From a phage, in assembly GCA_011915565.1 (NCBI GenBank), contig GCA_011915565.1_3920.1: a stretch of 64,000 nt of DNA; one strand, 5' to 3'. The translations under genes and the position numbers were made by a program. Position 1 is the stretch's first letter. The number at the start of each line of letters is the position of its first letter. The notes under the pieces were generated by a model. That model did no database searches. It was not told the origin of the DNA and saw only the letters and a list, made by a program, of their open reading frames with translations. Positions 8,858 to 58,402 of this stretch are shown here, in pieces.

Positions 8858-8936
8858 TCCCTTGTTGACTGATTGTTAAGATGGTGTTAATATTCTTTAT
8901 AGGTATTCTCACCATCTTGGCTGATGAGGTGATTAA

Positions 8937-11243: not shown

Positions 11244-11759
11244 CTATTTAACCTCAAAAACTGGCTCAAGAACCAATATAAAATCTACACAGTCATCTTC
11301 TTCATCCAGAATACCATCAAAGTTCTTAGGAACGAAGTCGAAGAGGCTCATAACAAAACAGTCAGAAGTGACCCTGATAGTTCCTCCCATGTTCTCTACA
11401 GTTAACACTGTGCGACTTTCTTTTACCTCCCTCAGAAGATTACTCACAAAGTCATCTAAGAAGTACTTCATCAATGACTTAAAACCTTTAGGGTAGTCTG
11501 TACCAGAGTATGTTTCAATCTGAGGCACAAGCTTAACATTTATACTAGTCTTTGTTAAGAACGTGTTAGAGAACATACTATCAGGTAGCTTACAAACAGT
11601 CTTTCCAGTACCTTCATGTTCAATCTCAACAAAACCAGCTTCGTCGCCACATGTAACTATTTTAAAAGATGCTTCATTCTCATACTGTGAAGCCATAAAC
11701 TTTTTAAGCATCTCTTTAAGGAAATCTGCATGAGCATCTTGTAAGTAGACATCAATCAT
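11244..11759 (-). CDS. hypothetical protein
   Basis: 171 aa ORF, co-oriented and tightly packed. Confidence 0.45.
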   Translation of the reverse strand: MIDVYLQDAHADFLKEMLKKFMASQYENEASFKIVTCGDEAGFVEIEHEGTGKTVCKLPDSMFSNTFLTKTSINVKLVPQIETYSGTDYPKGFKSLMKYFLDDFVSNLLREVKESRTVLTVENMGGTIRVTSDCFVMSLFDFVPKNFDGILDEEDDCVDFILVLEPVFEVK

Positions 11760-56686: not shown

Positions 56687-56759
56687 TCGACGCAGCGGGG
56701 CTATTTAGCCCCAGATACCTGAAAAGCTCCTTCTCATAGGGGCTTTTTTACGTCTATAA

Positions 56760-58320
56760 AGAGACTCTATACAGTCCCTTTCCTTTCCTTCCTAGAATCT
56801 ATCCCACTAATTCGATAGAGACTATCTCATACCTTAAAAAGCAATAACTCTATAGTCTACTCTATAACCTCTTATCAAATCAACTTAAATATAAGCCCAT
56901 AACCCGAAAGGGAAGGGCAACCACTAAAACGCTCTATAAAGCTCTATAACAGCCTTATCAACCTAACTTAAGCAATCATATTAACCCACTCTAAAAAGCC
57001 CTTTATAGAGCTTCCCAGAGCCTTAAAAGAATCTTATAAGGGTGTAAGCTTTATCATCTCGTTAGTATTCTTGTGAATAACTAAAAAGGGATTGGTAGTT
57101 CCTTTAAAGTATGTTATAGGGGCTATAAAGTTACTCAAAAGTTACGTAAAAGAGGCTATAAAGTTACGTGATAGATAGCTTAAAAGTTACGTAAATGCTA
57201 GCCCCCTTAACATTTTCTTAACAATTTCTTAACAATCCCTACATAGTTATGCTTTTAAGGCACTTGTTAGAGACTTGTTAGCCCTTGTTAAATCTCTGTT
57301 AAGACCACGTAAAAGCCTTGTAAGAGTCTTTGACATAGCCTTAAAAGCCTCTGTAAAGCCCTATAAAGAGCTATCCATACAGTTGAGGGGTAGATACTAG
57401 GAAGAGATTTAAAAGAGCTTATAAAGAGTTATAGAGAGCTTTTAAGAGGTATGTTTAAGAGTTCACTAAGAAAGGAAAGGGAATGATAAGAAAAGAGATA
57501 GTGACCATGCTAATAGCTTGTTAAAAAGATTAAACACTTGTTAGAAACTTGTTAATTATCTTAACAAAATAACTCTTTAAAATTAACTTGTTAACTCTTG
57601 TTAGTCATCTGTTAAGCCTCTGTAAAGTCTATGTATCAACTGTTAAGAAACTGTTACATCCCTGTTAGTTCTGTTAAGAATCTGTTAAGACCTCTGAAGA
57701 GATGTTAAGAGAATGTAGTAGCTGTTAAGAGATTGTTAAGGATATTTTAAAATTTTGCAAAGTACTTGTAAGGGAGCTGTTAAGGGCTACCAAGCAGATA
57801 TACATCCTAATCAGATATTTTTGAGTTCCTTCAAAGACCCTAAAAAATGACTTGATAGTCCTATTTTATAAAAATTTTAAAAATCTGAATAATTACCTAG
57901 ACAGTCTTTTAAAAATACAGGTAGAAACAGGCTTATAAGATACCTTGTTAGTACCGTGTTAGACCTTGTGAGATAAGGTCTGTAAAGATATTCCTGTTAA
58001 GTTTGTTAAAACAGTCTATATAGAGGCTTAGTAGTGCCTAGTGAACACCTATAGAGGGTAACATAGCTGACATAGAGATTAAGGGGTGTATAGAGGCTTC
58101 TAAGAGCGTATAGAGAGATGGTTAAGGTGATTGTATAGGTTGTTAAGAAGGCTTGTTAGAAGAGTGTTTAGAGGGCTTATTAAAGGGCTAGTTAGAAGGG
58201 TTATACAGAGGGCTATTAAGACCACTAGATAGTTACTAAGATACTATATAGTACTATATAACTATATAGAGAGTAAGATTAAGGAGGTTGTTAAGAAGGA
58301 TAGATATTTTGTTCACATAT
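56760..58320. repeat. ORF-free array of short degenerate repeats
   Basis: No ORF of 60 aa or more in any frame across about 1.7 kb; about 30 same-strand copies of (c)tgtta(a/g) concentrated at 57190-58300; recurring ctataaag(ag), tatagag and aaagttacgtaaa motifs. Confidence 0.75.
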
Positions 58321-58402
58321 GATGGTGACCCAGAGGTTGGGACAACCGATAAAATTTTATAAAAATTAAAAAGCCCCCGATTAAGGAGGCTCTTAAGATA
58401 TT

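Follow-up and report, generated by a model that had tools for sequence, protein, structure and literature searches.

TGTTA iterons and mirror-image motif arrays at the probable terminal-repeat junction of a Felix O1-like phage

The ends of T7 DNA are established to result from cuts at the two boundaries of a short terminal repeat and from duplication of this repeat by DNA synthesis. Outside T7, the choice of cut sites by phages with a short direct terminal repeat (DTR) is poorly understood. Repeated protein-binding sites beside the terminase cut are found at lambda cos (the R sites of cosB and a site for the host protein IHF) and at SPP1 pac, and in lambda the DNA-bending protein IHF aids terminase. 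Another host protein, ArcA, has an architectural role in Xer recombination at the psi site of pSC101 and also binds oriC. The present work concerns a phage sequence of 64,000 nucleotides (NCBI GenBank assembly GCA_011915565.1, contig GCA_011915565.1_3920.1), referred to below as the window, and more particularly its non-coding gap at positions 56687-58402. By its sequence this phage is a Felix O1-like myovirus (Felixounavirus). The gap very probably contains its DTR, in which a dense array of TGTTA units is found.

The location and the length of the DTR are already published for the genus, and are annotated in a few records. Bal31 digestion, in which two SpeI fragments were lost, and run-off sequencing revealed a DTR of 608 bp in the sister phage UAB_Phi87, whose large terminase subunit groups, together with those of Felix O1 and wV8, with terminases of the DTR type (PMC4837284). 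The repeat of Pr103Blw was determined by PhageTerm (PMC8303462). In Felix O1 only the large terminase subunit was recognized by Whichard et al. (PMC3185647), and no terminase subunit in charge of DNA recognition is known in the group. Published accounts of these DTRs give length and position only, with no description of internal iterons, mirror arrays or a terminal box, and the knockout map of Bas63 in the PhageMaP preprint reports no data for the gap region. In the searchable literature we found no account of the TGTTA iterons, of the mirror arrays, of the terminal box or of any connection with ArcA.

Direct terminal repeat and genome ends

The gap measures 1716 bp without any open reading frame (ORF) of 60 aa or more, the longest ORFs inside it having 31-41 aa. 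It is the longest stretch of this kind in the window, as stated in the initial annotation of this DNA, the next one being 494 bp long. Its sequence was matched in 257 phage records, nearly all of them Felix O1-like myoviruses of Escherichia, Salmonella, Shigella and Citrobacter, and one single match spans at least 80% of the gap in 189 of these records. In fjerdesal, heid and wV8 the equivalent gap separates a leftward gene block from a block of small rightward genes whose function is unknown, and carries at most short "repeat_region" or terminator features; across the records of relatives it is unannotated or contains tiny hypothetical ORFs only. Conservation was analyzed on an alignment of the window with nine relatives (10 sequences), which belong to Felixounavirus, Suspvirus and Mooglevirus; the last two are called the distant genera below. 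Identity of the non-coding region between genera is 0.69-0.76, higher than that of the two flanking genes in the distant genera (0.61 and 0.32).

Homology to the mapped ends of relatives places a DTR of 591 bp at 57201-57791. The annotated DTRs of Pr103Blw (581 bp) and HP1 (570 bp) both align to exactly this interval and that of UAB_69 (618 bp) aligns to 57199-57793; the annotation reads "short direct terminal repeat" at the matching site of the Pr103Blw record and "DTR" in UAB_69. The copies of the repeat at the two record ends are identical in Pr103Blw and in HP1 (first versus last 581 and 570 bases, respectively). Furthermore, at least six GenBank records (Pr103Blw, ZX4221, SeKF_63, E9, SPJ41 and HP1) start or stop at the base equivalent to 57201, i.e. 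position 515 of the gap; this is a lower bound, since the tally was taken from a ranked sample of the matching records. The record of Prophecy, an Erwinia phage which is far more distant, begins at the homologous AGCCAC.

With these boundaries the left cut would fall between ...AAATGCTA and GCCCCCTTAACA, and the right cut between ...TGTTAAGGGCTACC and AAGCAG. Both junctions are invariant in 10 genomes of the three genera: AAAGTTACGTAAA(T/A)GCTA followed by GCCCCCTTAACA on the left, CTGTTAAGGGCTACC followed by AAGCAGATATAC on the right. Because of this homology to mapped ends, we are highly confident that 57201-57791 is the DTR and that the gap is the concatemer junction. The initial annotation had hesitated between a replication origin, a boundary of packaging or of the terminal repeat, and a decoy array, a choice which in its view the sequence alone could not settle. 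Comparison with relatives picks the terminal-repeat boundary, both limits of the repeat being in the gap and the TGTTA array inside the repeat; an origin, less probable, is weighed below. For the decoy option, an unexpected lead comes from the resemblance of the sites to boxes of the host regulator ArcA-P, though a titration would be hypothetical. That the array coincides with the terminal repeat had escaped this annotation, as had the reverse TGTTA copies at 57206-57234 and the mirror symmetry of a second motif family, both described in the following sections.

In the course of these comparisons, a full Felix O1-type terminal repeat (87.7% identity) was also found at 135884-136463 of GU169904.1, the 147-kb record of Staphylococcus phage SA1. 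This record is probably a chimeric or contaminated assembly.

The TGTTA array and its putative reader

The gap contains 33 copies of TGTTA, 27 on the + strand (25 TGTTAR, including 12 TGTTAAG) and 6 on the - strand. The expectation for the + strand is about 2.7 copies, and the background outside the gap is 1.56 per kb per strand. The dense array of some 30 same-orientation copies announced initially is thus recovered with 27 of them on the + strand, the six others being on the opposite strand. Inside the DTR, 23 exact TGTTA cores are present (19 forward and 4 reverse). The local enrichment is 19-fold. The 19 forward copies compare with a maximum of 5 in any other 591-bp stretch, and an unbiased k-mer comparison for the central part of the gap ranks TGTTA and its extensions first. 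Over the whole window TGTTAR is not unusual (147 copies versus 129 +/- 12 in shuffles): the signal is a local clustering and not a genome-wide excess.

Three parts can be distinguished in the array. Three TGTTAAG on the - strand, 11 bp apart, run outward from the left genome end (57206-57235). The 19 forward TGTTA(A/G) iterons occupy 57265-57782 on the + strand, in clusters at 57265-57301, 57519-57554, 57589-57614, 57641-57738 and 57778. Right of the DTR, seven forward TGTTAR (at 57946, 57957, 57995, 58004, 58141, 58154 and 58289) are found with degenerate nGTTA units in the interval 57946-58293 of the + strand (most conserved in relatives).

The spacing of these units is more regular than the 8-15 bp proposed initially, a range which is too broad: most copies start 10-11 bp after the previous one, and multiples of this distance are found at 20-22, 31 and 42. 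Among the 18 adjacent spacings of the forward DTR copies, 11 bp occurs eight times, 20 bp three times, 10 bp twice, 9 bp once and 12 bp never. The 19 forward copies are roughly in helical phase, with R = 0.59 for a period of 10.5 bp versus 0.13-0.45 at the other periods tried (p ~0.001, Rayleigh approximation). Core positions are identical to the window in 97.6% of cases over the nine relatives versus 82.1% for the other DTR positions. The difference is wider in the two distant genera, where cores reach 95.1% and other DTR positions 71.1%, none of 5000 random sets of 5-mers being as good. Spacers between cores in the array all differ from each other. Insertions and deletions (indels) between the DTRs of relatives measure 10, 11, 21 and 22 bp, i.e. 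close to one or two repeat units, and are mostly not multiples of 3. An Erwinia phage whose sequence is ~75% identical over 85 bp only has, as here, reverse copies at the left end and then forward arrays, and it retains the extended motif TGTTAAGA though little else aligns.

We infer that the TGTTA(A/G) units are putative binding sites of a protein that binds head-to-tail. This is supported indirectly by cores that outlast their spacers, by the helical phasing of the sites and by indels close to one or two repeat units in length. Repeats without any protein partner, being either a by-product of slippage or recombination or a matter of DNA shape only (intrinsic curvature), seem improbable. Unit-length indels and changes in copy number do show that arrays expand and contract, and 11-bp tandem repeats with TGTTA are common in unrelated viral contigs. 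Pure slippage is nevertheless inadequate because cores are conserved while spacers drift (95% versus 71% over the three genera): slippage would copy the spacers too, yet those within the array are all different, and the same core persists in Erwinia phages.

ArcA-P sites are direct repeats of the 10-bp element ATGTTAAAAA with TGTTA as best-conserved core, spaced by 11 bp centre-to-centre and sometimes by 22, a 12-bp spacing being not bound; chromosomal sites contain 2-5 repeats each (PMC4173790, PMC3798270). The phage units have the same core and spacing as these sites and obey the same rule of orientation. The TGTTA array may thus be a cluster of putative sites for ArcA-P, the host response regulator active at low oxygen, which would then coat the terminal repeat. 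This remains a tentative proposal. It is compatible with the DTR assignment and names the binding protein. ArcA-P could act as an architectural helper in end processing, as do IHF at lambda cos and ArcA at pSC101 psi, or else the repeat could be a sink pulling ArcA-P off host promoters. The hosts known for the subfamily all belong to the Enterobacterales, and these possess ArcA.

The resemblance was quantified with a matrix for the 18-bp ArcA box, built from the 115 E. coli boxes readable in Table S3 of Park et al. and used with a cut-off of at least 10 bits (Park et al. used 9-10 bits; training boxes score 9.6-21.5 bits). The DTR contains 13 ArcA boxes above this cut-off, 5 of them with at least 15 bits; this amounts to 22 per kb, versus 0.85 per kb outside the gap, and the other 591-bp stretches away from the locus hold at most 4. 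The best scores are those of the boxes formed by the three reverse units, TTGTTAAGAAAATGTTAA (22.7 bits) and TTGTTAAGAAATTGTTAA (22.5 bits), which overlap within the last 35 bp of the left end and exceed all training sites (maximum 21.5). Their spacers contribute +5.5 and +5.8 bits, where random ones would give -2.6 +/- 4.0. All eight DTRs compared (from the three genera and the Erwinia phage) have these left-end boxes, with scores of 17-23 bits, and each contains 13-18 boxes that reach the cut-off. In the Erwinia phage, six boxes of 19-21 bits lie in the first 193 bases, the published repeat-element consensus ATGTTAAAAA being found verbatim among them. The variant cores TGTAA, AGTTA and GGTTA of the phage are of kinds also found in chromosomal ArcA sites.

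Several observations temper this match. It amounts to a 5-bp core plus a spacing, and much of the score follows from those two alone: in the forward copies, bases outside the core give about -3 bits, the random expectation. The ArcA flank preference (A/T before the core, A/T-rich spacer) is present at the terminal boxes and absent from the forward copies. The phage consensus is YTGTTAAGA, with C before the core in 39% of copies versus 3% in ArcA sites, and with G two bases after the core in 57% versus 8%, a feature that recurs in the Erwinia phage. These differences suggest a different or additional reader of the phage units. Moreover, chromosomal sites have 2-5 repeats near promoters whereas about 23 are found here with no convincing promoter, and some phage spacings are of 9, 10 or 20 bp. 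ArcA binding is here a prediction, and no paper linking ArcA with these phages was found in the literature. ArcA-P as a partner for which the array was selected is doubtful, if conceivable; predicted binding of ArcA to the terminal boxes in vitro seems considerably likelier. Equally doubtful is the stronger statement that the genome ends are built from putative high-affinity ArcA-P sites, ~23 per repeat, with the best of them on the last 30 bp.

Other candidates for the reader were considered. A tblastn search with ArcA returned 270 records, of which only 25 are named as Escherichia or Salmonella phage, with no Felix O1-like phage among the 25 matches listed; since a phage-encoded homologue would predict ~260 Felix O1-like records, such a homologue was rejected. 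Among host regulators, PmrA/BasR, which recognizes YTTAAK repeats, fits less well since one third of the phage copies are TGTTAG, and the cores of PhoB, PhoP, CpxR and TorR differ from TGTTA. ArcA-P is the best match by sequence, a phage protein of another fold being the possible alternative. Because arrays in unrelated phages would speak for a host factor, IMG/VR was also searched for sets of four TGTTA cores 11 bp apart. This gave more than 120 contigs; besides relatives of Felix O1 these are mostly perfect 11-bp tandem repeats of uncultured viruses, and the two most similar contigs (L109 and L129) have no match in the phage collection, so that no host is known for them.

Genes of the phage were examined as well. 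The ten genes flanking the gap have no Pfam match and belong to PHROG families of unknown function only, so that none could be retained as iteron-binding protein or small terminase subunit. For the 91 proteins of the window, which lacks about one quarter of the genome, no response-regulator or small-terminase family is present among the 25 listed of 51 Pfam families. These proteins include aerobic (large and small subunit) and anaerobic (NrdD with a 4Fe-4S activase-like protein) ribonucleotide reductases; the anaerobic genes fit the low-oxygen theme, and no more than that. Thymidylate synthase, DHFR, NAPRTase and PRPP-synthetase-like proteins, and endonucleases of the GIY-YIG (SegE-like) and HNH types are also found. 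Elsewhere in the window, isolated pairs of TGTTAA with 11-bp spacing occur at 8862-8890 and 11552-11569 (13.9-16.7 bits as ArcA boxes). The 8862-8890 pair is intergenic, after a gene of 849 aa, and overlaps a good sigma-70-like promoter (TTGACT, 17-nt spacer, TAATAT).

Mirror arrays, terminal box and flanking sequences

The second motif family noticed initially is confirmed: the gap has 12 copies of CTCTATA or of its complement TATAGAG, versus 3 in the rest of the 64 kb. Five CTCTATA form a left array on the + strand (56765-56948, with starts at 56765, 56848, 56860, 56932 and 56942). Only 2 other + strand copies exist in the 64 kb (enrichment of the 7-mer, p ~2e-12), and the motif ranks first in the left part of the gap. 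Four of the five copies are near-invariant over the three genera, the exception being the one at 56765. Five TATAGAG, the reverse complement, form the right array on the same strand (58019-58271, with starts at 58019, 58050, 58089, 58109 and 58265); here a single copy lies outside the gap (p ~9e-12) and the motif ranks first in the right part. The two arrays are thus in mirror orientation, 250-480 bp beyond their DTR boundaries, and the order read inward from either virion end is identical: the repeat, then TATAGAG units.

A similar symmetry is seen at the cuts themselves. A box TGTTAAGGG(GG)CTA is present at both cut sites, in opposite orientation at the two boundaries, so that both virion ends finish with the same sequence: the 3' finish is ...TGTTAAGGGGGC-3' for the lower strand of the left end and ...TGTTAAGGGCTACC-3' for the upper strand of the right end. 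The right terminal box TGTTAAGGGCTACC (57778-57791, + strand) is the inverted counterpart of the left end, belongs to the inverted-repeat pairs I2 and I9, and abuts on the invariant right junction given above. A third copy of the box, TGTTATAGGGGCTA, is found at 57112.

This third copy is close to the start of an inverted repeat, ATGTTATAGGGGCTA / TAGCCCCCTTAACAT (57111-57213), whose right arm contains the left genome end. The ggggcta and tagcccc arms reported initially do exist (57119-57125 and 57199-57205) and give a modest DNA hairpin (-13 kcal/mol, z = -2.55). Enclosed in the inverted repeat are tandem AAAGTTACGTAAA units (57127-57202), 3 in this phage and 1-3 among relatives. They have AGTTAC cores with spacings of 11 and 22-23 bp, and score as an ArcA-type box (57128, 14.2 bits). 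The left arm of the inverted repeat is lost in SUSP2 and Sf19. The tandem family of the initial annotation is confirmed, AGTTACGT being present three times in tandem.

Two flanking segments stand out by conservation. The most conserved non-coding block of the left flank, 56838-57087, is ~90% identical even in Suspvirus and Mooglevirus; in its 50-bp profile, values are 0.86-0.94 with all relatives taken together and 0.81-0.94 for the distant genera alone, where the flanking genes have 0.61 and 0.32. The block may be a candidate packaging-recognition site. It is better conserved than the DTR and includes the invariant strings AATAACTCTATAG, TATCAAATCAA and AGCCTTAAAAGAATCTTATAAGGGT. Just right of the DTR, a conserved A+T-rich spacer (57792-57930) with the invariant CTATTTTATAAAAATTTT has 27% G+C, and 22% at 57840-57925, versus 38.6% for the window; it is possibly a DNA-unwinding or bending segment. 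Strings containing GTGACC are also invariant across genera, TCACATATGATGGTGACCCA in the right flank (58313-58333) and AGTGACCATG inside the DTR (57499-57510).

The terminators which were said to bound the region are partly confirmed. The intrinsic terminator of the leftward gene block, at 58369-58394 on the - strand (10-pair stem, then a T run), was called by the scan and is annotated at the same place in wV8. On the other side, two hairpins closing the rightward gene block (56697-56749, + strand; GGGGCTATTTAGCCCC, then AGCTCC...GGGGCT, then TTTTTT) were read by eye and are conserved in the nine relatives. A T run follows the second only, and this second hairpin was not called by the terminator scan. 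Its stem starts with AGCTCC in 4 sequences, with one G-T wobble against GGGGCT, and with the fully pairing AGCCCC in the 6 others.

Two small palindromic elements were observed along the alignment. One of ~25 nt, GGATTCGATAGAATCTATCTCATAG (56805-56833), is found at other places and in either orientation within the same non-coding region of other phages: in L006 (UAB_69) at 1884, L007 at 1168, L012 (SUSP2) at 391 and L013 at 410 and 704, two of these sites being inside terminator loops. It behaves like a tiny mobile or indel-prone insert. The other is a palindromic insert of 22 nt, AATTGGTATTGTTACCAATCCC, present in the DTRs of UAB_69 and SUSP2 at the equivalent of 57588 and also in the left flank of SUSP2 (~56920), and absent from the window phage.

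A nucleoprotein platform, its alternatives and known systems

Taken together, these results lead us to consider as likely that the gap, as the concatemer junction, is where the ends of the genome arise, the iterons and mirror arrays being a putative nucleoprotein platform that marks the ends. By homology, replicating DNA would have one copy of the 591-bp repeat for each genome unit, and packaged DNA one copy at each end. If the phage behaves as T7-type phages do, terminase would make the left-boundary cut for one genome and the right-boundary cut for the adjacent one, the repeat being duplicated by DNA synthesis during packaging. The geometry and conservation of the motifs suggest the rest of the scheme: a protein bound head-to-tail, one per helical turn and on one face of the DNA, would coat or wrap the repeat, a second protein or domain would read the mirror CTCTATA/TATAGAG arrays, and the shared terminal box would mark each cut. 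The resulting structure may mark or position the cut sites, or else protect or pair the ends.

Some points weigh against this platform. Eight TGTTA copies are outside the DTR, so that the array is not strictly a feature of the terminal repeat. The binding of the iterons by a protein and their requirement for packaging are both putative, and the ends of this isolate are deduced from those of relatives and not from its own virion DNA. No small terminase subunit or DNA-binding protein was recognized by Pfam and PHROG among the ten flanking genes. The left-boundary hairpin is probably not essential, because it is not conserved in Suspvirus nor in one Mooglevirus. Lastly, the same sequences could also serve as an origin.

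That the gap is, or includes, a replication origin, whose initiator would bind the iterons and whose adjacent A+T-rich segment would melt, appears unlikely to us. The layout is classical, with dense same-strand iterons beside a conserved segment of 22-27% G+C (57792-57930) in a non-coding region better conserved than the neighbouring genes, and T7 has accessory origins, phiOL and phiOR, near its ends; neither two genome papers on Felix O1-like phages (PMC3185647, PMC4837284) nor the origin literature searched gives a description of the origin in this group. However, no initiator gene adjoins the gap, the flanking genes being without known function in Pfam and PHROG, and the limits of the array match those of the terminal repeat, which an origin would not need. 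Host factors were not recovered either: the gap contains one DnaA-box-like 9-mer with one mismatch, which is the chance rate, with no cluster of DnaA boxes and no IHF consensus. The turn in GC skew coincides with the switch in gene orientation and is uninformative alone. Far less probable still is a non-coding RNA or a short or unusual coding sequence hidden in the gap. Tiny hypothetical proteins annotated here in some GenBank records and the very conserved left-flank block could point to it, but the best Rfam score is 24.8 bits for a cut-off of 55, no tRNA was found, and the longest ORF is 41 aa, every frame being broken by indels of 10, 11 and 22 bp among relatives. Terminators on both sides also point into the region. 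Promoter-like matches (11 versus 6.7 +/- 2.6 in shuffles) are not clearly above expectation and come mostly from TTAACA, which resembles a -35 hexamer, so that a promoter cluster was not retained.

These results have practical consequences. The gap marks the true genome ends, whereas most deposited records of Felix O1-like phages are arbitrarily permuted and lack the second copy of the repeat. Its anatomy provides defined sequences for the study of cut-site choice: the shared terminal box, ~23 phased iterons in the repeat and the mirror arrays beyond the boundaries. If the ArcA match were a real binding, it would reveal a new coupling between phage and host, with an oxygen-responsive regulator on chromosome ends rather than on promoters, through which the phage would read or exploit the oxygen state of its host. 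In one version, ArcA-P would be recruited to the ends and would help, as an architectural factor, to cut, pair or protect them; in the other, hundreds of replicating repeats would soak up ArcA-P and lift its repression of respiratory metabolism in low-oxygen hosts, as in the gut. This would be relevant for phages in wide use for the typing of Salmonella, for biocontrol and for therapy in the gut, which is poor in oxygen.

Among known systems, iteron-type origins share with the gap phased same-strand iterons beside an A+T-rich segment, and differ by the adjacent initiator gene and the cluster of DnaA boxes, both missing here, and by limits of the array which here are the genome ends. Lambda cos and SPP1 pac produce cohesive or headful ends and not exact terminal repeats, with few sites read by an identified small subunit, and the IHF consensus of cos is absent here. 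The ArcA boxes of E. coli, direct-repeat sites of the OmpR/PhoB family, have the same TGTTA core, head-to-tail orientation, 11-bp spacing and occasional two-turn gaps, whereas the phage array counts ~23 repeats instead of 2-5, is not at a promoter and departs from the flank preferences in about half of its copies. The closest analogue in layout is the T7 junction, by analogy of arrangement and not by sequence homology. T7 also has a short exact repeat at both ends, non-coding, with same-strand iterons inside and beside it: CCTAAAG is found at 17, 41 and 60 within the 160-bp repeat, and in a same-strand array at 175-332 beside it. The motif here is TGTTAAG, its spacing is 10-11 bp instead of ~13 bp in the best T7 array, and the repeat is 3.7 times longer. 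Moreover, the flanking arrays of T7 share one orientation whereas CTCTATA and TATAGAG are mirror images, and the terminase is of another lineage, with no small subunit recognized (PMC3185647). The DTRs of Felix O1-like phages (UAB_Phi87, 608 bp; UAB_69; Pr103Blw, 581 bp; HP1, 570 bp) are homologous and represent the same element in other isolates, with both boundaries identical or within 2 nt and with the same position between two convergent gene blocks.

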